Positions 3,467-45,341 are shown, numbered from the whole stretch's first letter. The stretch: 61,908 nucleotides of DNA, filler included, from Dimargaris cristalligena (GCA_003614675.1; 29 parts of 29 records of this genome joined end to end with filler, not necessarily neighbours in it); one strand, 5' to 3'. A program made the numbers and translations. The notes: generated from the sequence alone by a model not told the origin.

Positions 3467-3652
3467 TTTGAGTGTTCTTTTCAGAGTTTTCAGTGTCATT
3501 TCTGAATATTTACAGAGTTTCCTGAGTTATCAGAGTTTACCAGTGTTATCAGAGTTATTCAGAGTATTCCTGAGTTATTCAGAGTTATCAGGGTTTTGTC
3601 CGAGCATTAGTGTTTTCCGAGTTTTATCAGTATTTTAGTGCCTTTCCGAGTA
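3467..3652 (+). repeat. Degenerate ~9-10 bp minisatellite (TCAGAGTT[A/T])
   Basis: Repeated TCAGAGTTT / TCAGAGTTA / TCAGTGTT / CCGAGT units. Confidence 0.8.
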
Positions 3653-4824
3653 TATCCATATCCCTTATACTGACTAGCAAGTATGCCTGCTGCATGTCCC
3701 TTGCCTATACCTGCACTTAGCCTTTATTAGTTAGTACCATACCTGTACCTGATACTAGTAGCCCACTTGGCCAAGCCTAAGCCCCACCTACCATTAGAAG
3801 TCTATCATCAGGACTCTTGACATACTAAGAGTGGTTAACTCAGGTGACAGTATCAATGTGAGATTTGGTTAAATCACTAGGCTATTAGGCTATATTAATA
3901 CTTTATGCAGGGAGCTAAGAGAAATACCAGACAGATAAGACATTTTAGGAGCATTTATATTAAAACCTGGAAAAACATAATGAATTAGAAGAAATGATAT
4001 GTATTATTGAAGAAAATACTATAAGAGATAATCAACAGTGTAAATTATTGCAATAAAAAATGTTATTTATGCAAAAGAATAGATTTTTACCTAGGTTAAC
4101 TGCTCTATTAACTAGGCTATCTATTCTGGGTCTATCAAGAGTTCTGGGTGTAAAGAACTGAACTCAAATCCTTGAAAACTGAACTTTATTTGAAAAGATA
4201 GATAATAAAAGGGAAAGANNNNNNNNNNNNNNNNNNNNNNNNNNNNNNNNNNNNNNNNNNNNTTAATTAATTAANNNNNNNNNNNNNNNNNNNNNNNNNN
4301 NNNNNNNNNNNNNNNNNNACATTAAAATCGGTTGAATATTCACAAAGTTCAAAAAAACTTAATGGGAGTTGTCGGTACACCTTTCAGTAGGTCATGTGCC
4401 GACTCTGCCAGGCTCTCCTTCAGCAACCATTTGTTTTGCGTTACATGTTCTAGCACCATTAGAATCCCCTGGTTAAAACCTTTCTAATGGCGCCTTTATT
4501 ATTTATTTTTATTTTTTTAGCCAGGGCCTCCATTTCAAACGAGCCCATTCTGTAATGCATTGATAGTGCTGTGCCCCCCTGCCAAGTGGTCCGAGTAAAC
4601 TCTAGTAAGTAGCCTTGTGTTCCTCTCACTGAGGGGAGCCTGCTGTTTTTTAATTTGTTACAATCGGCCAGTTATTGACTGAGTTACTGTAGGACACTAA
4701 CCAGTGGCCTAGTTAGCGGGTTAGTTAGGCCAAAAATCAACATGTCGTACAAAACAAATGCCTCCCCCTTAATGGCTTGTTTGATTTTTTAATAATGACT
4801 TTCTTGTTATTTGTTTTGTTATTT

Positions 4825-6473: not shown

Positions 6474-8528
6474 TATAATCAGGATAAGCTAAGAGGGGGG
6501 TACTACTTAATTGATGACGTAATGATTCAAAAGCTGATTGACACTCAGGTGTCCAAATGAGTTCTTTTGGTTTGTTACGAAGTGCACTGGTAAGTGGTGC
6601 CACAATAAAAGAATAGTTAGCAATGAATTTTCGGTAATAATTGGTGAGTCCTAAAAAGGATTGTAAAGTTTTAACAGTAGTGGGTACAGGAAAAGTTTGC
6701 ATAGCTTGAACTTTGCGGGGATCTACAGATATTCCTGCAGCAGAAATGATATGGCCTAAATATTCTAAAGAGGTTTGGCCAAAGACACATTTAGCAAGGT
6801 TGGCGTAAAGGTGATGTTGTTCTAATAGGGTTAGAACTTGTTGTAAATGTTGTTGATGTGTACTTTCATCTGGGCTGTAAATAAGAATATCGTCTAGGTA
6901 AACCATGGCGAACTTATCAAGGAAGGGATGAAGTACTCCATTCATAAGAGTTTGAAAAGTAGCGGGGGCATTAGTTAAACCAAAAGGTAATACAAGGAAT
7001 TCAAATTGACCATACCTAGTATTAAAAGCAGTTTTAGGAATATCAGGTGGATGAATACGAATTTGATGATATCCTGATTTTAAATCGATTTTAGAAAATA
7101 TGCGAGCACCAGCCAGACGAGCAAAAGTTTCATCAATATGAGGTAGGGGATATCGATTTTTTACCGTTTTTGAGTTTAGGGCCCGATAATCAATACACAT
7201 TCGACGAGATCCATCTTTTTTAGGGACAAAGATGACGGGTGCACCCCAAGGGGAGGCTCCTGGTTGAATCCATCCTTTAGTTAAGTATTCGTCTAGTTGG
7301 GTACGGAGTTCTTGAAGATCGGAATGAGGAAGTTTGTATGGATGACGATAAATGGGAGTGGCGTCTCCGGTATCCACGCGATGGTCAATGGCTCTGGCTG
7401 GTGGAAGTCCACTAGGTAATGGGCCTAAAATAGTGGATCGAAAGGGGGTAAGAATAGATTGGTATATACTAGGAATAGAGGGGGATTCTTCTGTTGAGGG
7501 TTGTACTAATATAAGAAAACCTTCTTGAGTTTTTAAGTCATTCAAAATTTCAGAGGTTTCAACAGTAGATAAAGTAGTTCTGTTGGGTAAAGGTTTTGAC
7601 GTAAAACTAGGATATCCTTCTAAATAAGTATTGGATTTAGGAAGAAATAAGGAATACTTATGCCATTGTGGTTGGGGAATATTTTCTAGAATCCATGGTT
7701 GACCTAAAAGAATATCATATGGGGGATTTTCTAGTATACAAGCTGTGAACGATTGAGAGAATGTTCCTAGTGTAAGATTGAAAGTAGTAGTATGGGTAAT
7801 CAATGAGGTGGTAGAATTTCCTAAGCGCACTTCTTGAGGCTGACTTAAAGGAATTGTTGATAATTTGGCTTGATGTGCTACTTGATAAGAAATAAAATTG
7901 TTAGTGGCACCAGGATCGAATAGGGCTGTTACTATAGTAGTATTGATGTTACCAGTTAAAAGTAAAAGGGGACGGGCATTTCCTATATGTACAGTCATAG
8001 TACTAGAGCCAAATCCTTGATTTTGGCGTAAAGTTGTAGAGAGGTTGTCAGAAATGATAGGGGAAATAGGATAATGCTTATTAAGAATACCTTGTACAAT
8101 ATAATTCCCTTTACGAATGGAAAATACACTAGGGCTGGAATTAAAAATAACAAATTGAATGATACCCCGATAGTCAGAGTCTATAATTCCTGCTTGTAAT
8201 ATAAGACCCCGTTTAGCAGAACTGGATCGTAAATGAAGTTGAATAAAATATCCATCTGGAGGTTCAATGCAAATCCCCGATGATATAACAGAAGGTGTCC
8301 CAGGCAGTGAGTCTGCGTTTCTTACACAAGGTATATCAAAACCAGCAGCACGTTCATAAGCACATCTTAAATCAGGTAGCAAAGGATCAGTTTTAGTATA
8401 TTGTAGATGAAAAGGGTGCAATGTAGAAGTAAGAGGGCTGCTAGTATTGGGAATGGCTATAGAAGAAATTAAAGAGGAATGACCTCGGAGGGGCCTGGGG
8501 TGACCTCCAAGGTATTGGTGTTTTGGCA
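6474..8528 (-). mobile_element. pol: Ty3/Gypsy retrotransposon polyprotein fragment: dUTPase - aspartic protease - reverse transcriptase
   Basis: The frame is open across the whole contig. dUTPase motifs AGFDI, RSSS, GIIDSDYRG, VQGI, RQNQGFGSS. Protease LFDPGATNNF. RT motifs RMCIDYRALN, KIDLKSGYHQ, PFGLTNAP, YLDD, YLGH, FLGLTNYYRKFI. Confidence 0.95.
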
Positions 8529-9954: not shown

Positions 9955-10450
9955 ACTATCTAATCCACCCTAATCCTGACATATTAGTGATCATCTTTAT
10001 TAGGCCTTATAGCACTATATTAACTTTCCTATGACCATACCCAGTACTATGGGATCACCCATATAACATATAACCCTTCCCCTTCCAGACTCCACTGCTT
10101 CACACTGCTCACTTGAGGGCTAATCCAACAACTCTTCTAGTTACCATCAGAGCCTTCCAGATCCTAACAGCCATCCAGTTGGCCTATTTTACCATACCTT
10201 AGTCTTAATAGTATTCTTCACCCCAGGGCTTCCCACTGGAGTTGCCCCTGTATATATATAACCAGGCCCCATTGGGACCAGTTAGGTTCTTCAGCTTATT
10301 CTTACCCCCTAGTTTATCCTGATAAACTCTATATATGCTCACCTCCCTTGTATTAACTAGTAAGTGTGCTCCCTGCATGTCCCTTACTTATACCTGTATT
10401 TTGTAGCCTTTATTAGTTAGTACTGTACCCTCCACCTAATGCTAGGACCC
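9955..10450 (+). mobile_element. LTR family A, truncated by LTR-B at 10451
   Basis: Shared blocks CCCAGTACTATGGGATCA, TATATATAACCAGGCCCC, CTTTATTAGTTAGTAC. Confidence 0.75.
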
Positions 10451-10799
10451 TGTAAAGAACTGAAATCAAATCCTTAAAACCTGAACTTTATTTGAAAAAA
10501 TAGATAATAAGAAGGGAAAGGTGATGATAGACTTGCTGTTCCAAGAGGTGGTAGTAAGGGGGAGTATTTATACTTGAAAGGGGAAGCCTAAATAAAAAGA
10601 TAGATGAAATAATAGAGAAAGGGAGAGGAGGTCCCAGAACATTGGATGACTAAGCAGAGGGAAAGGGAGGGGAGTTCCCAGACNNNNNNNNNNNNNNNNN
10701 NNNNNNNNNNNNNNNNNNNNNNNNNNNTTAATTAATTAANNNNNNNNNNNNNNNNNNNNNNNNNNNNNNNNNNNNNNNNNNNNGATCAATATCACATAC

Positions 10800-12027: not shown

Positions 12028-12385
12028 ATGGTCGACTCGGCCTCCATGACCAGCCGCTCGGCCCCCGACATTCCCCAGATTCCCCTATCCTCGCTTACCC
12101 AGCTATCCATCGTCTATGCCCACTCCGTGGCGGCCGCCGGCCAGAAACTGGCCAAGGCCAAGCGGAATAGCGGGGCACCGGGGTCCGTGGGACTGGCCCA
12201 ACTCCGCCGGCTCATTGAAGAAGACAAGATTCAGCGCAACCGCCTGGCTCACATTCACCAAACCACGGCCCAGATAGCCCAGCGGCGAATCACGGAGTGG
12301 TCTCCAGAGACCCTGGCCCTTTGCCTAACCTCCATTGACACCCAGATGGTTGAGCGGATAGACATTGACGACCTGGAGCGACGGC
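12028..12385 (+). CDS. RasGEF-like protein, N-terminal fragment (truncated at a chimeric junction)
   Basis: WSPETLALCLTSIDTQMVERIDIDDL resembles the start of the CDC25-type RasGEF catalytic domain. Divergent from the 5-phosphatase gene. Confidence 0.45.
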
Positions 12386-12386
12386 T

Positions 12387-12837
12387 GGCTGTGGAATTAT
12401 GGGTATGTTCGGCAATAAGGGGGCCGTGGCGGTCCGCTTTGACTACCAAGATTCTACCGTGTGCGTGGTGAACTGTCATTTGGCGGCCAATATGAACCAG
12501 GTCGAACGGCGTAACCAAGACTTTCATGAAATCTGTCGGCGATTGCTCTTTGCTGGCCGGTCTGATCTGCAGGGTGCCTCCTCCGCCATCTCTCCATCGG
12601 CGACCACTCGAACCCTGTCAAGCCCCAGTAACACCCTCCCACGTGGTCTACCGGAGCCCCCCGTGGGACCCCCTGAACTACCTGAAAGAGCGGTGGATGC
12701 CATCGGCCCCCCCGCCCGTGCGTTATCGGCCACCCACTCGGACTTTGCGGCCGCGGGGCTCGCTGTTCGCAAACCTCCTCCCACCCAGCCGGGGGCCCAG
12801 GCGTCCCCCTTGTTTGATCATGACTACCTCATTTGGC
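12387..12837 (+). CDS. Inositol polyphosphate 5-phosphatase, central catalytic segment (inverted relative to its N-terminal exons)
   Basis: GCGIMGMFGNKGAVAVRF, VNCHLAA, RRNQDF and FDHDYLIW are canonical 5-phosphatase motifs. Confidence 0.9.
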
Positions 12838-13754
12838 NNNNNNNNNNNNNNNNNNNNNNNNNNNNNNNNNNNNNNNNNNNNTTAATTAATTAANNNNNNN
12901 NNNNNNNNNNNNNNNNNNNNNNNNNNNNNNNNNNNNNACCTCTTGGAACAGCAAATCTATTATCACCTTTCCCTTTTTATCACCTATCTTTTTGAATAAA
13001 GTTCAGTTTTCAAGGATTTGAGTTCAGTTCTTTACACTTTAGCTACTTTCTTCCCTTACTTCCAGCCTTATTTCCTTTATAACCTTAGTATTCTAATAAT
13101 AATTACACAAGGTGGATTCATTACTATATAATAGAACTAAATTAGACCTTTACTTCAAAATATAGGAAGTCGCTGAGTTATCTTTCATAAACACAGGTCA
13201 GTTGCACAAGTCATAAGAGTAGCTGCTAGTTAGAGTGTAGCTACAGTCAGCATAACATTGATATAAAAGTATCAAATGTACAGCTATAGTACAGTTGTAT
13301 TAGAAAGTAGGGGATACTACACATACTGGTTGATACATGGAGTATTAGTTGATACTGAAGGCCATTTTAGTAGGACTAATACAAAGCTTAAATGGACTAG
13401 AAAATACCATAATTGCCACCCAATGGACTGCACTATCCAGCCCAGTATTAATAGCAGTAGTGGGGCTTTTTCATCAAGCCAGTTCAATAATTTCTATCAA
13501 AACTAACAAAGGGCCTCATCCAAAGACCACATCCTTCATGCAGCCACTATGGTATTATCATAACTTTGGAACAGTCTAGATTTAGATTTATTTCCTTGAC
13601 ATTTCTCTTTATTACATTCTACATCCAAAACATACATATGCTCAACTCCTTATTAATTCATTAAACACAATGGCCAATATAAATAGGGTAGATTCCCACA
13701 TTGAAAAACAATTTTATAAACAAAATTATAAGGTAAACTAAACTAAATGTACCA

Positions 13755-14192
13755 ATTTAACCTGCTCATTGGCAGGCACCACCTTGGTTTGTATTAAACG
13801 GTGGCTGGTTGAATTGGTAAGCCCCTATCTGCATCAGACAGGGGCTTGTCCCATTCTGTTGTCAGGTAATCCCTCCCCAGGACAAAAGGGGGATTACCAA
13901 TAACACCCTTTTGGGGGTGGATAGAATGTTTTATTTCCTGTATTACTACAGGAAGTGACCTGTATACTGGTGGACAGGTCACTGGTTGCTGAAAAAAGGG
14001 CCTAGAAATGGCCATTGGGAGGGGAGAGGAGGAGAGAAGAGGGAGGGTATATTTTTTTAAAAAAATGAATAAAGAAGGGAGAAGGTGGTAGACGTGGTTA
14101 GAAGTTGGGGATGGTTTTATATGTTGAGACATCCAAGTAATTGAAAAATGATGGGGGTAGATTTTGGAAAGGACTTTGGTTTGCTATTTATA
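13755..14192 (-). ncRNA. Candidate structured RNA / micro-ORF unit, copy 1 (7 tandem hairpins)
   Basis: TATAAATA at 14192-14185, a CT-rich leader, an AATGGCCATT palindrome, then hairpins at 13954-13983, 13935-13954 (GTAA loop), 13904-13919, 13865-13898, 13819-13847, 13779-13804 and 13761-13776. A 73-aa ORF spans 14015-13794. Confidence 0.6.
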
Positions 14193-15091
14193 CAGCACTT
14201 AACTAAAGATATCATTAGCCAAGTGTGGGATAGGCTGGCCCTGCTTCTCCCACCAAAGTAAACTACATTTCTAGTTCTATTCTATAGGTTTATCAGGGAC
14301 ACAATCACCTAGTTGCTAATGGGAGTTAGGAAAGGGACGAGGAGTTGTATTCACACCCACCCATTCCCTTTGTTGACGATTCAATTTTGTTGAATGGTAG
14401 TCGACAATAGGCCATTCGGTGTTAAAACTAGTCACTGGGGTATAATTAGACAATGTATCAATACACCAGCCTACTCCCCTACTTATGGTGTGCGACACAA
14501 GAGCATGCCTATAACCGGGGCTTGCTGACTGGCGGTTTTTTTATAATACTTGCTAATTGTGATGAATATTCCGTGAAGCACCCTACAATGCCAGACCTAT
14601 TTTCACACAAAGATAATCATCCCGGTGAATAGCATTAGGCCCCATATTGGAAAAGGCCGCGTACCTTATTTAGGAAGATTCATCCCCGTCAGTCACTACA
14701 ATGTAATGGCTATGGATCCTGTTGCACTTTACTCGACTAACTGATCCGCCGATTAAATGGCCACAGTCTAGCTATAACATGGACAATTCCCAATGCCGTG
14801 CTTCTAATAGGAAGAGCGAAGCCTTCCGGCCTTCAGTAATGTATTCTAGTCGTAGAAGGACCGGGAATTGCTGATAGGCACCCTAGTGCAATTATGGTAG
14901 ATTGATTTACAATTATTATTTTTTAGATTTTGGCACCCGTGGTAGTTGGGGTAGGGTGTGATGAACCAGAATAGTGCACGGCCCAGTAACTNNNNNNNNN
15001 NNNNNNNNNNNNNNNNNNNNNNNNNNNNNNNNNNNTTAATTAATTAANNNNNNNNNNNNNNNNNNNNNNNNNNNNNNNNNNNNNNNNNNNN

Positions 15092-17141
15092 GACTCATTC
15101 ATTAACATCATTTAAATGAGTTCAGAATACCCCTGTGTGATCTAAGAGAATCTCGGACCAGTAGTGAAGGTGGGTAGAGTAGACCTTCAAGTGTTAACTG
15201 TTGGGCCAGTGTTTTGAGGCCCCTCCCTTTCAGGGCTAAGGCTGGGGTTAGACCCATTGTTCTCCCCGGGATTGGCAGGGTCACTGGATGTCAGGTTTGG
15301 AGGGCTCAAGGCACTTGGGCGAATCATGGAGAACCTAGGAAATGGTCCCTCAGCTATTCGGGTTGGGTCATAACTGTGCTCAGAGGTTGAACTGGGATAT
15401 GGTGCAAAATGTTCAAAGAGAAGCAGTCCTAAACTCCTGTCATCGGAGTTGGGCACTGGAGGAGCCACGGTGGCTACATGCTAAAAAAAAATAAGATAAT
15501 GAAATTAAGAAAACAAAAAATTGACTTCCGGTTGAAGTGCTTGACTGATGCTGCGTAAAATACTGAGTGAAGTTAAAGTAGATATTTATTCTGAATAATA
15601 AAAACTTATCTCAAAGATAACTTGCCATTTTAAGGGCCGACTGGAGAGACTATATATATGCAAAATAATACTATGAATTTGGAACTATACTACTACTTCA
15701 GGACATTGTCCTCGGATGGACAGACAACTATAAAACCACAAAGGGAAAAACTAGTTGGGTCTTCAAGTTTGAACACTGTGGAAAATTGGAAGAAAAAGAT
15801 AAGTGGAAAAATAATGGAAAATGGATTCGCCTTGGATCTGTCAGGGCATTCCTTGAATGAAAACAAGAATATGAGTAAATGGAAGATAAAGTTGCCTCAG
15901 ATCCATCAGGGCATTTCTTCAATGTAGTTTATGGAAGACTTTGACATCACTCCCTCATCCCCATGTGAGTGTTGTTCACTGCAAAGGCATAACTACGTAT
16001 CTGGAGTGTGTGGCATCATGGGGTGGAGTATAATGACCAATTGGTCTCACAGAGAAGGAAAATCATCCTGACCCTGGCAGTACATTAACCAGGAAGACTG
16101 GTATATGATTCCCATAATAAATGTATACCCAATTGGGTGGCAATAAAGGTAATTGGGCTGGTTTTAATAGGGTAAGTTAATCTGCAGCCAGAGGTTAATA
16201 TCAATATTACCAATAAATTTTAGTTTTAAAAAATTATATGCAGCTATTAGTCATTGGTGAAAGGTATCTGTGTTGCTGTTAGATTAGAGGATAAAAGGAG
16301 TGGTTTTATTAGAGATATATAGTGTGTTGCCAACCATTTAAGGGGCTCTGCTGGTTTGTCTTTGGGAGTGTCAGCAGGAGGGGGAACCTCTGGTTTCTTT
16401 CCACTGGATGGGTCACCATATTTCATCATATAGTGTGGAGGGTTAGACTTTGCTGGATTTGAGGGGGGTCAAGACCAAGGTGGCCTTGGGGAAGTCACCA
16501 CTGAATTTCTGGTCATCCATCACATTATATGTCATTGTCTTGCATTGACGGTTGATAAGAAAAATAAAATAACCTAAATAGGTTATAATCAAACAGTATA
16601 ACCAATTCAGTACTCAGAGATACCACAACTTTGAACTAAGTTAATGAAAGTGAACAAATAGGAGTAGTAGCAATAAAATAATCAATAATGGAACTGGGTA
16701 AAAGGTTAATTGTTAATATCATATGGTGAAGTTAAAACAGATATTTATTTATTTATCTTGAAACTAACTTGTCCCTTCAACTGAGGGGATGCTGCTAAGG
16801 TATATATAAGAAATTGACCAGACTAAATAACTATAGCTAAGAATAAAACTGCAATAATTGTAGGTCATAAAAAACCTGCAATAGGAAAAAATTGACCTAC
16901 TGGCTAAACTATGGGCATGAATATGTTAAATGGAAGTAAAAAGGTAGAAATTGGAAGGTTGGAAGACACAGTCTTCCCAGTCCTCCTTCATGTCAGATAT
17001 TAATAAAATTAATAAAAAGACTTCATACTAAGTAGTTGTATGGTGTAATTCCAAGAAGGAATCCACTGGAGGCTAGTTATTCCTAAGCCCCACTCATAAA
17101 GGATCATCAATAGTATAAAAGTAGTGATATGAAGTGGTCAA
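15092..17141 (-). repeat. Multicopy 2-kb segment with two tandem TATA-led units (copy 1)
   Basis: Reverse complement of 19393-21435 and 23693-25741. A diverged copy lies at 44205-44922. Confidence 0.95.
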
Positions 17142-19392: not shown

Positions 19393-21435
19393 TTGACCAC
19401 TTCATATCACTACTTTTATACTATTGACAATCCTTTATGAGTGGGGCTTAGGAATAACTAGCCTCTGGTGGATTCCTTCTTGGAATTATACTATACAACT
19501 ACTTAGCATGAACTCTTTTTATTAGTTTTATCAATATCCGACATGAAGGAGGACTGGGAAGACTGCATCTTCCAACCTTCCAATTTCTACATTTTACTTC
19601 CATTTAACATATTCATGACCATAGTTTAGCCAGTAGGTCAATTTTTTTCCTATTACAGGTTTTTTATGACCTACAATTATTGCAGTTTTATTCTTAGCTA
19701 TAGTTATTTAGTCTGGTCAATTTCTTATATATACCTTAGCAGCATCCCCTCAGTTGAAGGGACAAGTTAGTTTCAAGATAAATAAATAAATATCTGTTTT
19801 AACTTCACCATATGATATTAACAATTAACCTTTTACCCAGTTCCATTATTGATTATTTTATTGCTACTACTCCTATTTGTTCACTTTCATTAACTTAGTT
19901 CAAAGTTGTGGTATCTCTGAGTACTGAATTGGTTATACTGTTTGATTATAACCTATTTAGGTTATTTTATTTTTCTTATCAACCGTCAATGCAAGACAAT
20001 GACATATAATGTGATGGATGACCAGAAATTCAGTGGTGACTTCCCCAAGGCCACCTTGGTCTTGACCCCCCTCAAATCCAGCAAAGTCTAACCCTCCACA
20101 CTATATGATGAAATATGGTGACCCATCCAGTGGAAAGAAACCAGAGGTTCCCCCTCCTGCTGACACTCCCAAAGACAAACCAGCAGAGCCCCTTAAATGG
20201 TTGGCAACACACTATATATCTCTAATAAAACCACTCCTTTTATCCTCTAATCTAACAGCAACACAGATACCTTTCACCAATGACTAATAGCTGCATATAA
20301 TTTTTTAAAACTAAAATTTATTGGTAATATTGATATTAACCTCTGGCTGCAGATTAACTTACCCTATTAAAACCAGCCCAATTACCTTTATTGCCACCCA
20401 ATTGGGTATACATTTATTATGGGAATCATATACCAGTCTTCCTGGTTAATGTACTGCCAGGGTCAGGATGATTTTCCTTCTCTGTGAGACCAATTGGTCA
20501 TTATACTCCACCCCATGATGCCACACACTCCAGATACGTAGTTATGCCTTTGCAGTGAACAACACTCACATGGGGATGAGGGAGTGATGTCAAAGTCTTC
20601 CATAAACTACATTGAAGAAATGCCCTGATGGATCTGAGGCAACTTTATCTTCCATTTACTCATATTCTTGTTTTCATTCAAGGAATGCCCTGACAGATCC
20701 AAGGCGAATCCATTTTCCATTATTTTTCCACTTATCTTTTTCTTCCAATTTTCCACAGTGTTCAAACTTGAAGACCCAACTAGTTTTTCCCTTTGTGGTT
20801 TTATAGTTGTCTGTCCATCCGAGGACAATGTCCTGAAGTAGTAGTATAGTTCCAAATTCATAGTATTATTTTGCATATATATAGTCTCTCCAGTCGGCCC
20901 TTAAAATGGCAAGTTATCTTTGAGATAAGTTTTTATTATTCAGAATAAATATCTACTTTAACTTCACTCAGTATTTTACGCAGCATCAGTCAAGCACTTC
21001 AACCGGAAGTCAATTTTTTGTTTTCTTAATTTCATTATCTTATTTTTTTTTAGCATGTAGCCACCGTGGCTCCTCCAGTGCCCAACTCCGATGACAGGAG
21101 TTTAGGACTGCTTCTCTTTGAACATTTTGCACCATATCCCAGTTCAACCTCTGAGCACAGTTATGACCCAACCCGAATAGCTGAGGGACCATTTCCTAGG
21201 TTCTCCATGATTCGCCCAAGTGCCTTGAGCCCTCCAAACCTGACATCCAGTGACCCTGCCAATCCCGGGGAGAACAATGGGTCTAACCCCAGCCTTAGCC
21301 CTGAAAGGGAGGGGCCTCAAAACACTGGCCCAACAGTTAACACTTGAAGGTCTACTCTACCCACCTTCACTACTGGTCCGAGATTCTCTTAGATCACACA
21401 GGGGTATTCTGAACTCATTTAAATGATGTTAATGA
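19393..21435 (+). repeat. Multicopy 2-kb segment (copy 2)
   Basis: Matches 23693 onward at the left end and the reverse complement of contig 15092-17141 from ~19730 onward. TATA-like sites at ~19726 and ~20876. Confidence 0.95.
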
Positions 21436-22011
21436 AAACTACNNNNNNNNNNNNNNNNNNNNNNNNNNNNNNNNNNNNNNNNNNNNTTAATTAATTAANN
21501 NNNNNNNNNNNNNNNNNNNNNNNNNNNNNNNNNNNNNNNNNNTACTGGTTGAAAATACACATACATCCTATTTTCCCGTACATATATCATTTAAAACCTT
21601 ATACAGCTGGGCTGAATTTCACCCATTTGGAATCTGATCAGCTGAGCAAGAGGCACTCTAACAGTAAATGTATTATGAAAATAAATTTATGCCAGCCTGT
21701 CACTGGCCAATTAATAAAATATATGAGGATTGCTTGTTCTGAGTTGGTTGAATCTATTTATATTGAATAGTTTATAAAATTGGATATGTCCCTAATATTA
21801 TATCAATATCTGCACAGTTTACCTAAGAACACATCATCAATATATTACTCAAACATCACTTACCAATCAGGGACATAGATGTATTAATTTCTACTTATTA
21901 TCATTAAGTCCACCATAAAAATATCTGTATGACAATACTATATTATTTAGAAGTTTAGCAATATAAATCCAACATCATTTATGCTGGATGTGTAATGCCA
22001 CCCAGTGGTAC

Positions 22012-22599: not shown

Positions 22600-23429
22600 T
22601 AACATCCATTGAAAAATCCTTACTCATTGATAGTTTGATCAGTGGTTTTGTGATGTCTGCAAAATTCCAGATAAATTACTGGTAAAATCCAGTAAGCCCC
22701 AGAAAACCTCTAACCTTGTCTGGGGACTTAAACTCCAGCCAATTGGTAATTGCCTCTGCCTTTGATTTTGTTGCCTCAAAACCATCAGCTAATACAATAA
22801 AACCAAGATACTTGACCCTGTCCTGTGCCCAGAGGCACTTGGACCTTTTAAGGAATAGTCCAAATTGGCAAAAGCAAAAAGAAACCATTCTAATATGTTC
22901 AGCATGCTCCACCAGAGATTTAGAAAATATACTAATATCATCTATATAGATAACACATATTTTACCAATATATCCCAATAATACCTTAGACATAAAATGG
23001 GTAAAAGAGGCCACTGCATTATAAAGTCCAAAAGGCATTACTCTCCAGATGAACAACCCCATGTGGGTTTAAAAACACATTTTCCACTAGTTATCTATCA
23101 CTAGTGGAATTTGATGGTATCTGGCAGCCATATCCAATGTCAAAAAAATTATAAAACCATGAAAAACTTCCATCACCTGGTCAATATTACAGAGAGGAAC
23201 TTTATCCTTTACTGTAGCATTATTTAGGTTCTGGTAGTCACAGTATACACAGACTGACCCATCCTTCTTTATTACCTGGACTGTGTTACAGACCCAGGGA
23301 TTTGGACCCTTTGCCAGTATAATTTGGCCTGCCTCCAGTAGTGATTTGACCCCATGTGCATTGACCTGCCACTATTTGATGGACTTTTGGAATAGACCTT
23401 GGTATTTAGGTTTGATCCCCAGTAGTAGC
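22600..23429 (-). pseudogene. Degenerate Ty3/Gypsy reverse transcriptase
   Basis: VMPFGLYNA, YIDD, VKYLGF, FLGLTGFY, with stops or frameshifts upstream. Confidence 0.85.
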
Positions 23430-23692
23430 TGTAAAGAACTGAACTCAAATCCTTGAAAACTGAAATTTATTTAAAAAGATAGGTGATAAAAGAGAAAGGT
23501 GATGATAGATGTACTGTTCCAAGAGGTGGCAGCAAGTGGGAGTATTTATACTTGAAAGAGGAAGCCTAAATGAAAAGATAGATGGATAATAGNNNNNNNN
23601 NNNNNNNNNNNNNNNNNNNNNNNNNNNNNNNNNNNNTTAATTAATTAANNNNNNNNNNNNNNNNNNNNNNNNNNNNNNNNNNNNNNNNNNNN

Positions 23693-25741
23693 TTGACCAC
23701 TTCATATCACTACTTTTATACTATTGACAATCCTTTATGAGTGGGGCTTAGGAATAACTAGCCTCTGGTGGATTCCTTCTTGGAATTATACTATACAACT
23801 ACTTAGCATGAACTCTTTTTATTAGTTTTATCAATATCCGACATGAAGGAGGACTGGGAAGACTGCATCTTCCAACCTTCCAATTTCTACATTTTACTTC
23901 CATTTAACATATTCATGACCATAGTTTAGCCAGTAGGTCAATTTTTTTCCTATTACAGGTTTTTTATGACCTACAATTATTGCAGTTTTATTCTTAGCTA
24001 TAGTTATTTAGTCTGGTCAATTTCTTATATATAGCTTAGCAGCACCCCCTCAGTTGAAGGGACAAGTTAGTTTCAAGATAAATAAATAAATATCTGTTTT
24101 AACTTCACCATATGATATTAACAATTAACCTTTTACCCAGTTCCATTATTGATTATTTTATTGCTACTACTCCTATTTGTTCACTTTCATTAACTTAGTT
24201 CAAAGTTGTGGTATCTCTGAGTACTGAATTGGTTATACTGTTTGATTATAACCTATTTAGGTTATTTTATTTTTCTTATCAACCGTCAATGCAAGACAAT
24301 GACATATAATGTGATGGATGACCAGAAATTCAGTGGTGACTTCCCCAAGGCCACCTTGGTCTTGACCCCCCTCAAATCCAGCAAAGTCTAACCCTCCACA
24401 CTATATGATGAAATATGGTGACCCATCCAGTGGAAAGAAACCAGAGGTTCCCCCTCCTGCTGACACTCCCAAAGACAAACCAGCAGAGCCCCTTAAATGG
24501 TTGGCAACACACTATATATCTCTAATAAAACCACTCCTTTTATCCTCTAATCTAACAGCAACACAGATACCTTTCACCAATGACTGACAACTGCATATAA
24601 TTTTTTAAAACTAAAATTTATTGGTAATATTGATATTAACCTCTAGCTGCAGATTAACTTACCCTATTAAAACCAGCCCAATTACCTTTATTGCCACCCA
24701 ATTGGGTATACATTTATTATGGGAATCATATACCAGTCTTCCTGGTTAATGTACTGCCAGGGTCAGGATGATTTTCCTTCTCTGTGAGACCAATTGGTCA
24801 TTATACTCCACCCCATGATGCCGTGCACTCTGGATACATAGTTATGCCTTTGCAGTGAACAACACTCACATGGGGATGAGGGAGCGACATTGAAGTCTTC
24901 CATAAACTACATTCAAGAAATACCCTGATGGATCTGAGGCAACTTTATCTTCCATTTACTCATATTCTTCTTTTCATTCAAGGAATGCCCTGGCAGATCC
25001 GAGGCGAATACATTTTCCATTATTTTTCCACTTATCTTTTTCTTCTAATTTTCCACAGTGTTCAAACTTGAAGACCCAACCAGTTTTTCCCTTTGTGGTT
25101 TTATGGTTGTCAGTCCATCCGAGGATGATGTCCTGAAGTAGTAGTATAGTTCCAAATTCATAGTATTATTTTGCATATATATAGTCTCTCTAGTTGGCCC
25201 TTAAAATAGCAAGTTATCTTCGAGATAAGTTTTTATTATTCAGAATAAATATCTACTTTAACTTCACCCAGTATTTTACCCAGCATCAGTCAAGGACTTC
25301 AACCGGAAGTCAATTTTTTGTTTTCTTAATTTCATTATCTTATTTTTTTTAGCATGTAGCCACTGTGGCTCCTCCAGTGCCCAACTCCAATGACAGGAGT
25401 TTAGGGCTGCTACTCTTTGAACATTTTGCACCATATCCCAGTTCAACCTCTGAGCAGAGTTATGACCCAACCCGAATAGCTGAGGGATCATTTCCTGAGT
25501 TCTCCATGATTCGCCCAAGCACCTTGAGCCCTCCAAACCTGACTTCCAGTGACCCTGCCAATCCCGGGGAGAGCAATGGGTCCAACCCCAGCCTTAGCCC
25601 TGGAAGGGAGGGGCCTCAAAACACTGGCCCAACAGTTAACACTTGAAGGTCTACTCTACCCACCTTCACTACTGGTCCAAGATTCTCTTAGATCACACAG
25701 GGGTATTCTGAACTCATTTAAATGATGTTAATGAATGAGTC
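23693..25741 (+). repeat. Multicopy 2-kb segment (copy 3)
   Basis: Near-identical to 19393-21435. Many of the differences are transitions at ancestral CpG sites. Confidence 0.95.
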
Positions 25742-26306: not shown

Positions 26307-27832
26307 TTAAAAACGGGCTATTACCATTTTCCAATGGCGATTTAGGAATGGCTCAGGCATCAAATGGGGTGACCCTGCTGGTGGTATTGCCCACTGTCCA
26401 TGTGTTGGTAGCTCAGTGATTACTCGGGCAATCAACTGGAGGGTGGGCCACCATGGTTGGCCCTTCCATAGGGGCAGTACAATTGTCCCCCGGGCCTCTT
26501 CCTGGATTATTTTTGTGATAACTCGACCGATTATTCCAAATGGTGGGTTGAGCCAACCGTTTTCCTGTGACCAATCTTAGGTAAACGCATCAACCCAGGT
26601 AGCCTTTGGATGCTCCCTCAAGGTGCAAAACTGGGTCAATTGGGCATTCCATGGGCTGGCAAACTAATCAATTGTGTGCGGCCCATAGGACTGATCCAGT
26701 GATAGGAATAATCTCCGATCCAGCTTCCAATCTCCATGCTGATTGATCCGTGATAGGAAATCAAATTCAATATTCATAATCCCTACTAAGTGACTTGCTC
26801 CCCCAAAGATGATAATGTTGTTCTTGACCACTAGATCCCAAATCTGGCGCACTATCCAATTTAACAGAGGGCTACGAGATCCATAGCCATTTATAGCCAC
26901 TACTACACAGGTGGCATCTGTTCTCAACTGAATCTGATGGCCGCTCATCTTGTGATGATTTTCAAGCAATGTCCTTTCTACTGCTATCAGTTCCAATGTA
27001 GTAATATGGAGTGGGGCTTCAGCCTGTGTCCACATCCCATGGCCAAGGTCAGAATTGTAAGTCCACCCAAAGCCTTGACCACTGGCATCAGTGGTTAAAA
27101 TGTGGGTTCGAACTGGGGCAAACACTGGGTAGCTGAGTTGGGGTTCTAGTAGGGTCTTGTACAGGCGTTTGAGGTCCCGATAGGCGGCATTTGTGAGCTT
27201 TACAGGGGCCTCCCAACTCACTTTTGTGGTCAGACAAAGGTACACAGATCGCAGGTGCATCCGGACAGCTGGGAAAACAAGGCGGGCTGATTGGAACAGG
27301 CCTGTCAAGGAAGCCAGGGAACGGGCCTTAACCATCCTCTTTCTTTGGGCTGCTTTCCTCAATATGAGATGTACTTGAGCAGATAGTTTTTGACGAAAAT
27401 CATTGGTCAATTGGAACTGAAGATGAGGGATATCCAGGGTCAAACCTAAGCGGTCAATAGATGTTGTTGGTGACCACTGACACTTGGTTGGGTGGAGATG
27501 AAGACCTAGGGACTGGATTAATTGTTGTACTTGGAGGGATGTTGATTCCATTTCAGCAAGTGAGCCTGAGCAGAGGACCAGGTAATCATCCAGGTAAGGT
27601 AAGCAACTTAGCCCCCATGATTTGAGAGTATAAGTTATTGTCTTCATTGCTTTACAGAAGAAAAAGGGTGATAAGGTCCACCCAAAGGGAAGGGTGTTAA
27701 ATTGATAGACCTTCCCAAGTAACTGAGTTTGGAAATACTGTTGAGAATTCCAGTGGATGCCAATGGCCATATATCTATCCTTTAAATCAAAGGAGATTGT
27801 GCACTGGTCTGGCTGGATGAAGTTCCTGGTGG
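26307..27832 (-). mobile_element. DIRS-type retroelement fragment: RT - RNase H - N6-adenine methyltransferase-like domain (two in-frame stops)
   Basis: RT: FDLKD, LPFGWTLSP, YLDD. RNase H: TTDASGQGFG, HITTLELIAV, TDA, DFLSR. Reading through the stops gives GPHTID*FAS...VDAFT*DW...WLNPPF...IVLPLWKGQPWWP, the DIRS MT signature. No tyrosine recombinase is visible in this contig. Confidence 0.88.
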
Positions 27833-27882
27833 TGTGGTAAGGTGGAGTGTCCCCTTGATTGCCACAGGTATGAATTATTACA
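27833..27882 (+). mobile_element. LTR family D 5' end inserted into the DIRS RT
   Basis: TGTGGYAAGGTGGAGTGTCCCCTTGATTGCCACA, also at 32251-32396(-) and 36272-36412(+). Confidence 0.75.
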
Positions 27883-28095
27883 NNNNNNNNNNNNNNNNNN
27901 NNNNNNNNNNNNNNNNNNNNNNNNNNTTAATTAATTAANNNNNNNNNNNNNNNNNNNNNNNNNNNNNNNNNNNNNNNNNNNNCTCCCCCTTGCTGCCACC
28001 TCTTGGAACAGCAAGTCTATCATCACCTTTCCCTTTTATTATCTATCTTTTCAAATAAAGTTCAGTTTTCAAGGATTTGATTTCAGTTCTTTACA

Positions 28096-28168: not shown

Positions 28169-30118
28169 GAAGCCCGATGCTTGCATTATTGTTTCTGCTA
28201 TATTGGTATGTATATAAGAAACTGCATGTATCAGGACATGGTATCCTTTTTATATTGGGATGCCTATTTATTAAATATACCGTAATAAACCAATCTTTTT
28301 AATTAGGATAGAAATAAGTCTAGGATAATGGTCAATAATAAGGTAATCGGACTGGATTAATCTATATATATCATAATGTCACTGTGGCAATATGGATAAT
28401 GATGGGGCTATGGACGGATGCCTTTGTCTGTGTTGATGGAAATTATTGAGCTGGCTTACTGAAACGGCTACACTAAAATTTAAAATACTGGGTTAAATTG
28501 TATGTTCCAGCCAGGGTGTGGTATCTTCAAGATTTTCCCAGTCAGGGATACTATTGATTAATATCTTTCAAATAAGGTGTCCGGAACTACAAGGTCCCTA
28601 GATACCAATCCACTAATATCTCCTTTCCAACTTTTTGTTGTAAAATAACTGGCTATATATATATCTGTATATACCCCCTTTGGTGTTATTTAGATAAAGG
28701 CTTTGGCAGGCATATTTATTGTACAGTACGTGGCCCGGAGGGGCACCTCTCTATTATCTAATATAATCTGGTCATTTAACTGATATGGTTACTTTACCGA
28801 TAACCTTCACCGTCAACAAGCCTATACCGTGGAATGTACATCATACTGTCAATAGCCTTGCACCAACTGATGGTCACTGTTTTCAATTTATATCGCCTAA
28901 TTATGTCAATGAAAAATTACTTGGTGACAGCCCTTTGTCTTTTGGTATATATGGTGGATATAGTTATATTGACTATAAAAATATCCCATTAACTTTACCA
29001 TACCCATTACAATCTAAACCCTATAAAGTTAGACAAAACCCTGCCTATATTGGGTGTAGGCTATTACCAGAGATAAAACTAGTACAACTGACCATCGAGA
29101 TGCAATCACCCAAAAAAGAAAGTATGTTGTTGTTGGATTATATTCACTTTGTGTCTATTGCATCCACAGTCATGGCAGGGTCTTACTCTAGCTGCTAAAG
29201 CAACCCAACACCATTGGAGTCCACCGGCACATTTGGGACTATAGCCCCTGCCACTATGCCAGATAACCAGAGTGTCTGACAGTTACCCTTGACCCGACCA
29301 GAGACTCCTTGCTAAAAACTTCCACCATCATCATAGCCAGTTAATGACCAGCCAATGAATTCATTGTTCTTGGAAGTTTAATATAGTTTTTCCGGGCCCT
29401 CTTGATGCAATTAGATGTTAGTTATAGGTCATATAAAACTGTATTGGTGATGCAACCTAATCCTTTAGTTTACTAGCGCTCATATTGCTATTATTAAAGG
29501 TTTTATTACTAATTCCTCTGTCTAATAAATATACTCATACTATTTGCTATTCTAATAATACCAAAGGCAAAATAAAAGCATATTATTATTGGCTAGTGGA
29601 GCTTGTTCATTGTGTTCCCTTTTCCTAAAAAGAAGGAGCCATAAACATACCCATAGAGTGTAGTCTGCCCCACACACTTCAGCTACTATTAGCTCTGGTG
29701 CTTCAAATGAAGCCAGTTAATACAGCAAAGCCAGGGTCATTTCAATACTCCAACAACCTGTTTCCTTTGTAGTTTTGGTTGTCAATTTAACCAAACCGGG
29801 CAGAGAATGGTATGGCCAAGATTGCTCAGCTAACCTCAAGCACATAAATCCCCTCCTCTCCCTCTCCCTGCTTTGACCAGCCTGAACACTGAACTGCTGG
29901 GAGCCACTATCTGGATTGATTGGCATGGCCAATTATTTAGGGTCTAAAGGAGAGTCCCCTTGGCAGCCTGTTTGGTCACTGGGTTCATTTATTCCCAAAT
30001 ATTAAGAGGTGACTAATANNNNNNNNNNNNNNNNNNNNNNNNNNNNNNNNNNNNNNNNNNNNTTAATTAATTAANNNNNNNNNNNNNNNNNNNNNNNNNN
30101 NNNNNNNNNNNNNNNNNN

Positions 30119-32396: not shown

Positions 32397-34213
32397 GCGC
32401 CAAGTGGTCTACACTGATGGGACAATAGCCACTGCGAGGTTCGGACAAGGAGGCATTAAGGCAGCCCTAGCGGAGCGCGAGCCTCGAGCCACGAGCTCAT
32501 CAGTGACCATATCCCGTATTCCTGCACAGTGGGGAGTAGCCGAGCCTGCCCAGCGAACCCTGGTCAGACAGACGGGCACTACGAAGAAAGCGAAGGATGC
32601 CGCGGGACAGGCCACGGGCACCGCAACAGAAAACAGAGCGCACAATGGAGCGCATAAGCGACCAGCCGTGGGTCGTAGACGGGACCCGATCGTGACCCAA
32701 CCGGATGATGACAACGATGGTGGCATGGAGGACGTGGAACCTCTACCTGCGCTGTGAAACTTGGTGGACCACGCGACCGAGACCGTACGCGGGAAGAAAG
32801 CCCTGGCCAAGTTCCATCTGGTGGCCAAGATTGACGAGTATAACTCCGATGATCTAGTAATGGAGCACCTTGGCAGGAACAACTTGGGGTTGTCAGCTTG
32901 GGAGTATTTGGTGATAGTACCCCGCGCTCGCAAGTTGGTTAGACAGCATTTAGCTAAGCATCACCAGTACGTCGAGCCGAGGGAAACTGGTACGGAACCT
33001 ACTGTACATGAAGTACAAGTCGATGAGACCTCAGACTCGGAATCTGATGAGGACTGGGTCACGAACCATAGGGCAGAACGGACCTCGCGAGCCAACACTC
33101 GCATCGTTGCCAGCGTTCTGAGGTTACCAACGATGATTATCCCAGCTATGATCGGTGGAGTGCGAACGGACGTACTCATCGACACGGGATCCGAGGTGAA
33201 TCTCGTGCCCGCTCGACTAGCTAGACTCTTTCCAGCGGGAACAGTGCAGTTGCATCCCGAGATCCCCAAAGTGTTTGGGGTGGGAGAGAGTGCCGTTGAA
33301 TCCGGGAAAGCCGTGTGGGACGTACTGGTGACCACGGGAAGGATCTCGGTTCCCACCAGTTTCCTAGTTGTTGACGACAACCATCAGCAGACAATACTGG
33401 GTATGCCCTGGTTGTCCGCGGTGGACTGGGTCGTTAGCAAGACTCCAGCGGGACAGAAGCAGCTAGTGGTGACGTGGAAAGGGTCTACCGAGAGCTTCCC
33501 GATCCCCGAAGCCCCGGTCACCGACCACATCCGTAGTTCAGCTATCACTATTGACAGAGTTCACACTCGGGCTGCTAAGTTCAAGCCTGCCCACCGGAAA
33601 GTACACCCCGTAGCAGCGCCAGTGCCGGCCGAATATCAGCAAGAATATCCCATCACGGGACGAGATGTGTTCGACGACACTGACCTAGATCATACAGGAG
33701 ATCTCCGTCTCACGGCGGAGAACATGAAGACGTTAGTAGTTGGAGATGGCGAGTTAACGGCCACTGAAACCCGGTACTTCCTCAATCGACTCCGAGAGGT
33801 GGACCACGTGTTTGCGTTCAACAAAACCCATTTGGGGATGATCAAGCTGGAGTTCGCGCCGCCGGTGCGTGTGGCTTCAGTTCCACATGTACCATGGAAT
33901 TACAAACCCTTTGCGGTGCCTCAAGCCATGCACGATCAGGTGGTCGCCATGTTGAAGGATCGTCTGGAAACCGGTGTGATAGAGCCGTCAGAGGGACCGT
34001 ATGCCAGTCATTGGTTTACTCTACTCAAGAAGGACGGAGTTAGCCTACGCTTTATTCAGGATTTTCAGCCCGTAAATGTGGTGACGATACGCAATGCCGG
34101 TGTGCCACCGGTGGCCAACGAAATGGCGGAAGAGGTGTCCGGGTGCAGCCTCATCACCAAATTTGACCTATACTCCGGATACGACCAAATCCCCATTGAT
34201 CCCAGGGACCGAG
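32397..34213 (+). mobile_element. Ty3/Gypsy gag-pol fragment (protease, start of RT), bounded by LTR-D and LTR-C insertions
   Basis: VLIDTGSEVNL protease, ILGMPWL, PSEGPYASHWF, LRFIQDFQPVN, FDLYSGYDQ. One in-frame TGA at 32755-32757 joins the two ORFs. Confidence 0.88.
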
Positions 34214-34855
34214 TGTGGTGAACTTACCACATTTTTTACCTACTTTTATTTTTTATCTATTTTTCGCACTTATCGGAAGTATNNNNNNNNNNNNNNNNNN
34301 NNNNNNNNNNNNNNNNNNNNNNNNNNTTAATTAATTAANNNNNNNNNNNNNNNNNNNNNNNNNNNNNNNNNNNNNNNNNNNNAGCGGTCGGTAATCCCGG
34401 CGGTATTTGTTGATCTTGATCGTAAGGCCACCGTCCCAGGTAAGGGCGTGGCCGAACCGGGCGGTGCAGGTGTGGAATACACAATCATACATGTTGACCC
34501 CCAGGGCTGAGCACACCACCAAATTTTCAGAATAGCCCACCCCCATACAGTAGTGGGGTTTTGCATTGGGAAAATGGTTGGTGCACTGAGTAACCACCTA
34601 CCAGAACTGATCCTTCTCTTCACCACTACTCAGACCACCAATAGCATAGTCCGGTGTGTCCTGCTGGATCATTTTGGCCAGACACACCTAATGTAAATTA
34701 AGGTCAAGTCTGCCCTGGATAATAGGAAACAAATTCTGTCAATTGGGGAAGTAGTGGGCCTTGATACACCAGTCTAGCCACCAAATGGAGTGACACATAG
34801 TTTCCTCAATATGAGGACATGTTGTTAAGGATGATGTCACAGTGGTAGTATCAGG

Positions 34856-35077
34856 TGTTGGAATACTAAGGACTTAAAGGAAATAAAACTGGAAGTAAGG
34901 GAAGAAAGCAGCTAGAAGATGGTAGGTGCCTCTAAGAGGTTTGTTTTATTGAACTGTATTTTCAATAGGGTGAAATATAAGTGGCTAATATAAATAATCT
35001 CATGATAGCAGAATAAACTAACATAACTAGATAAAATAGGATAGGATAAAGAATATATAGGAACATATTCTTTAACA
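34856..35077. mobile_element. Short solo LTR family E (~220 bp, TGTTGGAA...TTTAACA)
   Basis: Homologous to 37277-37506, 53244-53426 and 13040-13098. Confidence 0.7.
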
Positions 35078-35178
35078 CTCTTATGGAGAGACTAATTGGG
35101 GATAGCTTAAACAAAATAAATGGGAAAAGGTTAACTAGGCTATATAATGATATATCTATTAGATAAAGTAAATATCAC

Positions 35179-35762
35179 TGTTGGCTCTCCTAATTTGACT
35201 TAATCTAGACTTTATGATTATCTGTCCTTATTATGACTTATAGTGCCATATTAACCCTTCTATAGTCGCCCCCAGTACTATGGGGTCATCATTCATTATA
35301 TAACCTTTCTCCTTCCAGCCCCAGTACTTTGTACTAAAATACTCAACCTGCTAATCCAAGACTCTTCTGGTTCCCATGAGAGTCTTCCAGATATGAAGCT
35401 ATCTAGTCAGATTCTTTATCTACCTATACCTTAGTCTTAGTAGTATTTCCCTTGGGACCTCCCTCTGGAGCTGTCCCCACGTATATATAACTGGGCCCCA
35501 CTGGGACCAGTTTGATCCCTTAGCTTATTATTACCCCCTAGTTTACCCCAATAAACTCTATATATGCTCATTCCCCCTTATATTAACTAGTAAGTGTGCC
35601 TACTGCATACCCCTTGCATTTATCTGCACTTATCCTTTATTGGTTAGTACTACACCCTATCCTAATACTAGTAGCCCACTTGGCCAAGTATAAGCCCCAC
35701 CTACTGTTAGAAGCCTATCCTTAGGACTCTTAATGGACTAAGAGTGGTTGACCCAGGAGACA
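35179..35762 (+). mobile_element. Solo LTR family A
   Basis: TGTTGGCTCTCC...CCCAGGAGACA with internal TATATA and AATAAA. Confidence 0.78.
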
Positions 35763-35958
35763 ATTTTATTGTAATTTAATTTAGTATAAGAATAATCCTT
35801 TAAAAAGTTGTAGAAAATAGTTTAAACATATTGAAAAATAGTAGAAAGTAGTTAAAGAAAGCTAATTTGCTGCTACTCCAATTGCTGGACATCAATTTAT
35901 ATAGTACAGTTTTTTTTTGGCTTTTCTGAGTCATTATTCATAGATTTATTATAGGTCT

Positions 35959-36271
35959 ATTGCCCCTCCTAATCTGACCTAATCTGTCCTCTAAATGATT
36001 GCTATCATAACAGGCCATATAGCGCCATATTGTACCCCCAGTCCTAATGGGGCCGGACATCATATATATCATCCCACCAGCTGGACCCCCCCGGAGTTCG
36101 CACTACTCACTCCTAGGTGATCTTAGTGTCTTCCAGTTCCCATGGAAGCCTTCACTTGTACAAGGACCACCCGGCTCTCCCTATTGTTATCTTAGTTATG
36201 TAGTTTCCCCTTGGGACCTCCCTTGGAGTAGTCCCCCATGTATATATAACCAGGCCCCCCATGGGGACTGG
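35959..36271 (+). mobile_element. LTR-A variant subfamily, truncated by LTR-D
   Basis: Similar to the reverse complement of 42895-43061 and shares the GGGACCTCCC...TATATATAACCAGG core with family A. Confidence 0.6.
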
Positions 36272-45335: not shown

Positions 45336-45341
45336 TTTTTT
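45335..45341 (+). terminator. Pol III oligo(T) terminator of the 5S gene
   Basis: T7 run at the 5S 3' end. Confidence 0.85.

Follow-up and report, generated by a model that had tools for sequence, protein, structure and literature searches.

Sequence context of the locus

Positions 13755-14192 of the window hold, read on the minus strand, a TATA motif, a pyrimidine-rich leader, a short palindrome and an almost uninterrupted row of small hairpins. The window, i.e. the whole stretch of DNA that was analysed (61,908 bases from Dimargaris cristalligena, GCA_003614675.1), is not a single locus; it consists of 29 unplaced contigs, length-sorted and 2018-2061 nt each, connected by 28 linkers of the form N44-TTAATTAATTAA-N44. 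Since it is a chain of linker-joined contigs, the spacing of features across different contigs is meaningless. The contig with the hairpins, c7, covers 12938-14991.

Ty3/gypsy PR, RT, RNase H, IN and dUTPase fragments are present on several neighbouring contigs, as judged from translated ORFs. These include a dUTPase-PR-RT polyprotein fragment at 6475-8526 (minus strand), where the dUTPase is located upstream of protease and RT (Pfam E 5.6e-20), RT pieces at 26667-27881 and 22679-23068, a PR piece at 32758-34218 and an RNase H-IN piece at 47150-48739. No transposase, Rep/helicase or TnpB domain was detected in the 36 long window ORFs that were scanned, and no Rep or helicase domain in 94 scanned ORFs, which is weak evidence given contigs of only 2 kb. 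Ordinary genes are found among the repeats: an intron-free fragment of a glycogen debranching enzyme (38640-40481, plus strand), with identities of 70% to Tieghemiomyces, 67% to Dimargaris, 65% to Dispira and approximately 55% to other fungi, and an intron-free subtilase with a PA domain (55912-57669, plus strand), for which the protein search gave identities of at most 36%. The identities of the debranching enzyme place the source fungus near Dimargaritales. An intron-free fragment of an Exo_endo_phos2-domain protein is located at 12369-12836 (plus strand). At the Rfam gathering thresholds the only match in the whole window is a 5S rRNA at 45218-45336; this gene is complete (plus strand, 93.8 bits) and its 2 kb contig is otherwise unannotated.

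Three contigs (c8, c10 and c12) are largely one sequence, with 97-100% identity and partly in reversed orientation (15092-16891 versus 19643-21442, and 19393-19588 versus 23693-23888), which points to a very young repeat or to redundancy in the assembly. In contig c2 two arms of 568 nt, 99% complementary and 921 nt apart (2162-2729 versus 3651-4218), form a near-perfect palindrome; it could be a foldback element, or a chimera from assembly or amplification. On c20, repeats spaced 12, 39, 51 and 63 nt apart, in tandem or interleaved (41416-41869), are situated in long ORFs of both strands, and these ORFs gave no Pfam match.

Organization of the hairpin array and its copies

The motifs listed in the original prediction were all found at their positions by direct reading of the sequence, and the proposed layout, seven hairpins tiled behind a TATA motif, leader and palindrome, was confirmed on the minus strand of 13755-14192. 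Within contig c7 the copy in question, referred to as A1, extends over 13097-14991 (minus strand) according to MAFFT and pairwise alignments. Its TATA motif, TATAAATA, is located at 14185-14192, 5' of the leader, and TATAAATAG is identical in the alignment of A1 and B1, the second full copy. The leader (14017-14184, minus strand) contains runs of T7 and A7 and is the least conserved part; most indels of other genomic copies fall here (14038-14120). It is followed by the palindrome AATGGCCATT at 14007-14016, whose minus strand ATG (14015) begins an ORF (see below).

The array itself (13761-13983, minus strand), delimited with RNAfold, a perfect-stem scan and sliding z-scores, is composed of six or seven small, near-contiguous hairpins over approximately 230 nt, with stems of 5-13 bp. 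In A1, on the minus strand, these are H1 (13954-13983), H2 (13935-13954; an 8 bp stem with the predicted GUAA loop on the TATA strand), H3 (13904-13919), H4 (13865-13898), H5 (13819-13847), H6 (13779-13804) and H7 (13761-13776). Directly 3' of H7 is TTAAAT (13755-13760, minus strand), which is invariant after the last hairpin in all four copies.

Copy B1 occupies the whole of contig c28 (57772-59790, minus strand, by alignment) and represents a second subfamily, B. The layout recurs here as had been claimed, with TATAAATA at 58802-58809 and with the palindrome, H2-H7 and TTAAAT at 58428-58644 (RNAfold and perfect-stem scan), and one whole hairpin, H1, is indeed absent. Also the two partial copies are real, and their ends are explained by a contig end and by an inserted element, respectively: A2 (contig c25, 51402-52159, plus strand) begins at the contig end, next to the N linker, inside H4 and has kept H5-H7, TTAAAT (51515-51520) and the repeat sequence downstream of it, while in B2 (contig c14, 28096-28828, plus strand) the terminus of another element (27983-28095) has cut into H5, and H6-H7, TTAAAT and the downstream part are retained.

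The pattern GGTGCCTGC-N9-GGTTAAAT occurs four times in the window versus zero expected. Using nhmmer with the four-copy alignment no further copy was found in the 29 contigs (next match E 6.1). Scanning metagenomes for the same pattern gave 50 loci, which were rejected as chance matches because, in blastn with the four contigs, only the 30-nt pattern itself was shared, and this in 2 loci.

Local folding of the array

Both strands of both full copies were folded with RNAfold and compared with 200 dinucleotide shuffles. The TATA strand gave z = -6.75 and -6.24 for the two copies, far beyond the shuffles, and the other strand -4.72 and -4.73; in each of the four folds 0/200 shuffles folded as well. 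The signal is local. With 150-nt sliding windows along c7, z was below -3 in 4/26 windows, three of which are contiguous over the array (13763-14062), and on c28 in 4/25, all inside 58297-58746; outside the arrays, in the remainder of these two contigs of about 2 kb, z is near 0. Perfect hairpins of at least 7 bp number 133 in the whole window compared to 73-79 in five shuffles, and the densest 250-nt bins (13750 and 58250/58500) correspond to the two arrays. Moreover, 5/6 of the shared hairpins are located in identical columns of the A/B alignment, with 90.2% of the cells paired versus 35.8-51.2% when the partners were slid by 1-3 columns. The array is thus real and locally unique, and its position is kept in two subfamilies that are only about 55-60% identical.

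The array is part of a dispersed repeat

Contigs c7 and c28 align over approximately 1.9 kb, to the contig ends, at 55-60% identity and with few gaps (MAFFT and pairwise alignments), and no alignment was obtained for this comparison with the shuffled sequence control. Within subfamily A (c7/c25) the identity is 85% over 783 aligned nt, and within subfamily B (c28/c14) 80% over 743 aligned nt. The homology runs through TTAAAT in all four window copies and continues, at the same 55-60% level, about 650 nt past it and likewise some 800 nt 5' of the TATA motif. Hence, the duplicated unit is much larger than the proposed gene of ~400 nt, since the homology extends beyond both of its edges. Downstream it ceases near 13100/52160; the tails of c25 (52160-53246) and c14 (28829-30018) are unrelated, with a local alignment score of 28 versus 23-32 for shuffles. 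Because the A-B homology runs to the contig ends no terminus of the repeat is visible.

The repeat is without coding signal over these 1.9 kb: none of the 58 ORFs of at least 45 aa in the four copy-bearing contigs had a Pfam match at E<0.01, and the mismatches between A and B showed 3-periodicity in 0/30 windows. In four public DNA runs of the same organism we found 84, 91, 46 and 87 contigs, respectively, that match c7 at 80% identity or more (all identity classes); contig depth in these runs is not a copy number and was used only as a sign that many distinct contigs match. The loose ends of matching contigs carry further variants of H5 (CGACCCC...) and H2.

Other repeats adjoin and interrupt the copies. 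At the downstream end of A1 there are two other repeat termini (12938-13096, minus strand), both seen with other flanks elsewhere (families D15 and D17). The adjoining repeat begins with TGTTGGAATACTAAGG, degenerate here, and is itself interrupted by an element that starts with TGTAAAGAACTGAAC (TGTAAAG); the latter is inserted both beside A1 and inside H5 of B2. The TGTAAAGAACTGAAC terminus is found at 12938-13040, 27983-28095, 2162-2233, 4122-4217, 10424-10519 and 23403-23498, with five different flanks. The TGTTGGAATACTAAGG repeat, followed by a purine-rich stretch, is present at 13041-13096 and 53246-53426 and in parts of c17 (34383-36412) and c18 (36513-38539), and its upstream flanks differ among c25, c17 and c18. 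Thus, instead of the gene family implied by the word multicopy in the original prediction, we find a dispersed repeat of at least 1.9 kb among TE-rich unplaced contigs, and a non-coding, dispersed and diversified repeat that is nested among transposons points to a mobile-element family.

For eleven contigs of other copies (five in run X1, two in X4 and four in X5) the match breaks off precisely at 13755, next to A/T-rich sequence. The summed contig depth peaks over 13740-13930 in 3/4 runs and rises toward the 13755 edge in X1, X4 and X5, not in X3. This edge could be a true 3' terminus in some copies, i.e. in retroposed or 5'-truncated units, and could equally be a transition from conserved to variable sequence under the 80% likeness filter. 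The first of these would suit free-standing Pol II genes for a new structured ncRNA of ~350-400 nt, from the TATA box to TTAAAT, that had been duplicated or retroposed. Such genes would also account for the finding that TATAAATAG, leader, array and TTAAAT follow in the same order in both subfamilies and for strong local folding without an Rfam match. The homology on either side of the unit in all four window copies argues against them, as do the T7 and A7 runs in a leader that is the least conserved part, the TE insertions that interrupt copies, the thin covariation (see below) and the filter as another possible reason for the stop at 13755. Judging from the sequence we regard ncRNA genes of this kind as unlikely.

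Possible strand preference and the convergent motif pair

The minimum free energies of the two strands are near-equal (-104.5 versus -105.0, and -95.3 versus -94.3), and the hairpins could consequently work at the DNA level or on the opposite strand. The original prediction noted that mismatches become G-U pairs on the TATA strand, and this is borne out among the window copies by four independent G-U events versus none on the other strand, a count that has a p of only about 0.06. A loose-end variant of H2 (X4, place 13923) would carry T-G on the plus strand, opposing the bias toward the TATA strand.

A second motif, CCAATATAAATAGGG, is located on the opposite strand (13674-13688, plus strand) and convergent to the first one, in alignment columns that are invariant in all four copies. 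Here a conserved CCAATATAAATAGG is situated 65-75 nt past TTAAAT, oriented opposite to the first TATA motif, and the form CCAATATAAA(T/A)AGG is kept in 4/4 copies; the array lies between this motif and the first TATA motif. The inverted pair of TATAAATAG motifs comprises 14 nt with 93% identity in B (58325-58338 / 58795-58808) and 9 nt in A. It is the only conserved inverted repeat found, and the A-B homology extends outside both motifs. A 32-nt inverted pair in c7 (13124-13155 / 14256-14287; 75%) is not matched by a similar pair in c28 and was discounted as a chance match. The conserved pair could represent convergent promoters and transcription, or a signal at the DNA level.

If the array acts as DNA, its stems would take the form of cruciforms or of hairpins in single strands, located in an origin-like region or close to, or at, the terminus of a DNA element (a rolling-circle element resembling Helitron2, or another transposon that uses hairpins). 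Equally stable folding on either strand and the convergent TATAAATAG(G) motifs flanking the array are in favour of this, and the short invariant tail after the last hairpin, with a T-rich flank in other copies, loosely recalls fungal Helitron2 ends as described in PMC5148889. There is, however, no CTRR, and none of the four window copies shows a boundary at TTAAAT; the stem sequence differs from hairpin to hairpin, unlike repeated transposase-binding motifs, and the wobble positions favour one strand by 4:0; the scanned ORFs are also without a Rep, helicase or transposase domain, a weak point with 2 kb contigs. Taken together, action at the DNA level appears improbable.

An open reading frame through the array

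The ORF that begins at the palindrome ATG of A1 has 73 codons followed by TAA (13794-14015, minus strand), overlaps H1-H6 and is a candidate coding sequence, as is its counterpart in B1 with 58 codons (58643->58470, TGA at 58467-58469). A micropeptide had been considered possible for this locus, and one part of that suggestion holds: the frame is open in both subfamilies and the stop is at the same aligned codon in 4/4 copies (TAA, TAA, TGA, TGA). The frame is kept between A and B despite indels of 42-48 nt (H1) and 3 nt. In blastp the two ORFs share 37% identity over 83 aa, and no other six-frame ORF pair came close to this match. The frames were open by chance in 184/5000 (A) and 600/5000 (B) shuffles. 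In the ORF frame pS is 0.537 and pN 0.374, and in the other two frames the ratio is about 1:1.

The tests for homology, fold and periodicity were weak or negative. Mismatches by codon position are 26/18/28, and this periodicity is not significant (chi-square 3.4 at best); among the last 24 codons the first 10 align at a random level. Among 5.8 billion proteins (word-based search, 40-128 aa) no homologue of the peptide was found. A profile search of 1.84 billion representatives gave three matches, of which the two inspected were long repetitive proteins and rejected; the third is 3795 aa long. AlphaFold2 predicted no secondary structure and no confident fold (mean pLDDT 50.6). In addition, a loose-end variant suggests a 2-nt difference in length between H3 and H2 in another subfamily. 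Codon-level constraint on the ORF may thus be present and would be weak.

A small orphan protein gene of 58-73 aa, possibly repeat-borne and with a fungal TATA plus CT-rich promoter, would make the hairpins secondary. The shared frame with its aligned stop, the blastp identity and the excess of pS over pN would follow from it. Against it are the codon-position pattern, the failure to find homologues or a fold, the stretch of randomly aligned codons near the end, the length difference between H3 and H2, and a folding z of -6 to -7, far beyond that of ordinary coding sequence. The extreme folding signal makes structure, rather than the ORF, the primary feature, and a gene of this sort seems quite unlikely. 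The same grade applies to a composite, i.e. an undescribed structured RNA family of Dimargaritales-like fungi with convergent TATAAATAG promoters, retroposed so that it ends exactly at TTAAAT, and also containing the ORF of 58-73 codons, which we consider a quite remote prospect.

Covariation between the copies

The covariation set is composed of four sequences and is effectively one deep comparison between two lineages, i.e. too few independent changes for a covariation claim. Both sides changed in 4/45 pairs, a number that was reached by 45/500 shuffles and is not significant. The original prediction described stems changing together between copies, and this is correct for three positional compensatory pairs: two in H2 (U-A to C-G) and one in H6 (A-U to U-A). 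Its example in H5, AAGCCCC/GGGGCTT versus TGACCCC/GGGGTCA, is not positional. In the gap-free, length-preserving alignment the 3' arms align, whereas the 5' arm is located 10 nt further upstream in B, and since the 3' arms coincide and the 5' arms are offset this is a hairpin kept with a re-made arm and not covariation. The re-made arm would still say that a hairpin is wanted at that place. RNAalifold gave 37 consensus pairs with four double changes, and the covariation term contributes -2.5 of -46.2 kcal/mol.

Variants in other genomic copies add to this picture. At 13941 (T>C) and 13948 (A>G) the changes have identical depths and contig counts in 4/4 runs, and jointly they turn an inner H2 pair from T-A to C-G. 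None of the nine well-supported variant sites in the core breaks a stem: two compensate each other, one changes U-G to C-G beside H5, and six are in loops or linkers. With three genuine pairs and two lineages the covariation falls short of showing selection on RNA structure, and because this evidence is too thin the claim of RNA-level selection is unwarranted.

That the palindromes are functionless, relics of template switching or of small palindromic insertions in decaying repeat DNA, would explain the non-significant covariation, the presence or absence of H1 as a whole and the re-made H5 arm, which resemble insertion or re-creation, but is very unlikely given that perfect stems of 7-13 bp are kept in place across lineages differing at about 40% of the positions, that z is near 0 across the remaining ~1.6 kb of the element, and that 0/9 well-supported core variants break a stem.

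Interpretation

Our preferred reading, to which we give an even chance on the basis of sequence comparison, is that the array is a cis-acting structured module (~230 nt, 6-7 stem-loops) of the transcript of a multicopy non-coding mobile element. A working part of a mobile element is more likely than a new cellular RNA gene. In favour of it are the local folding and its shared position in the two subfamilies, the compensatory pairs, the dispersed and non-coding nature of the repeat, the Ty3/gypsy fragments on neighbouring contigs and, for the strand, the wobble count and the conserved TATAAATAG. Transcription of the element would run along the TATA strand, beginning at this TATAAATAG and passing through the pyrimidine-rich leader, and the stem-loops in the transcript would serve the propagation of the element itself. 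A reverse transcriptase or Gag provided in trans might recognise or package the RNA through them, or they might contribute to RNA stability or export. In lineages that remained active the hairpins would have been retained, with the rest of the element drifting to 55-60% identity, and such retention would explain why individual hairpins persist, have been rebuilt (H5) or are missing altogether (H1), and do not decay base by base.

Several findings count against the module as proposed, namely the equal energies of the two strands, the wobble count with its p of ~0.06, the opposed CCAATATAAATAGG motif, the non-significant covariation and the open ORF, and also that the window contigs showed neither a terminus nor a target-site duplication nor a coding partner for the array repeat. 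For this last reason the label mobile element rests on copy number, the pattern of divergence and nesting. Its class may be either retroelement or DNA element; the former is what we would suggest.

As a cis-acting module of a mobile element the array would be nothing out of the ordinary, being transposon RNA or DNA with structure, albeit from a family that no database lists and from a fungal lineage that has hardly been studied. It would help to annotate repeats and to tell which elements are, or once were, active in these fungi. The finding would matter more if the unit were transcribed independently as an RNA, or if its structured RNA encoded a peptide as well. The array also carries a warning: where many copies with covarying hairpins turn up in a chain of unplaced contigs, they mostly reflect transposon subfamilies.

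Comparison with known systems

The array matches no entry in Rfam, Pfam or the protein searches. With Rfam 15 there were 0 matches at E<=1 in 12938-14991, in agreement with the original prediction, which did not recognise it as an snRNA, SRP, RNase P/MRP, tRNA or ribozyme. The likeness to families such as snRNA, SRP, RNase P/MRP, snoRNAs and ribozymes, hammerheads among them, is confined to a compact multi-hairpin architecture. Readings as H/ACA snoRNA, group II intron domain or hammerhead were dropped, being without any Rfam signal. Precursors of miRNA-like small RNAs have stems of about 20 bp or more as Dicer substrates, and with stems of only 5-13 bp the array is not a miRNA-like or long-hairpin small-RNA precursor. 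Guide RNAs of Fanzor/TnpB are structured RNAs that end at a transposon edge; a reading along these lines was dropped since no long ORF or TnpB domain is present upstream of the array.

Among DNA transposons, TIR elements and MITEs would have inverted outer ends with a target-site duplication. Here the sole conserved inverted pair consists of the TATAAATAG motifs, the A-B homology goes on outside both of them, and no TSD is definable. A canonical Helitron has a 3' CTRR with a hairpin 10-12 nt upstream, a 5' TC, insertion at AT and a Rep/Hel partner, and this candidate was rejected: in the array the last hairpin is followed by TTAAAT without CTRR, and homology continues beyond it in 4/4 copies. 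Fungal Helitron2 elements have, according to PMC5148889, one hairpin per end, asymmetric terminal inverted repeats and a T-rich 3' end in ATTTT. The likeness consists of short GC-rich hairpins followed by a short A/T tail and a T-rich flank, and the difference is that the array has 6-7 hairpins and that no Rep/Hel domain is present in the scanned ORFs.

Turning to retroelements, structured cis-acting regions are found in retroviral leader and export elements and in the 3' stem-loops of LINEs and SINEs that are recognised by RT. The array shares with such regions adjacent stem-loops downstream of a promoter in a transposon transcript (here predicted), hairpins that would be maintained by selection on the element itself, a sharp conserved 3' edge at TTAAAT and, in 3/4 runs, a rise in depth toward this edge. 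It differs in that there is no A-rich tail and no similarity to a curated family, neither in sequence nor by covariance model, and in that homology passes TTAAAT in 4/4 copies. A non-LTR or SINE 3' end would be sharp, with unrelated flanks, an A-rich or simple-repeat tail and 5'-truncated copies. In comparison, 11 contigs do end at 13755, but without a tail, and the four window copies all continue past it. Another structured cis-acting region of a retroelement RNA is the 5' TIPIRT domain of Ty1 (PMC5454406).

With respect to LTR elements (TG...CA, PBS/PPT, two direct copies), the TTAAAT edge is without a CA ending, the B copies have no TGG after it, and the purine-rich tract beside A1 belongs to a different repeat whose start has other flanks elsewhere. 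Non-autonomous LTR elements of the LARD/TRIM type reportedly, in work by Kalendar et al. from 2004, have non-coding internal domains with conserved predicted RNA structure. The repeat that carries the array differs from these in having no assignable LTRs, PBS or PPT, and its contigs end before any terminus; it resembles them as a long, multicopy and ORF-less repeat, present in a genome dominated by Ty3/gypsy fragments, in which structure is kept while the sequence of the subfamilies drifts.
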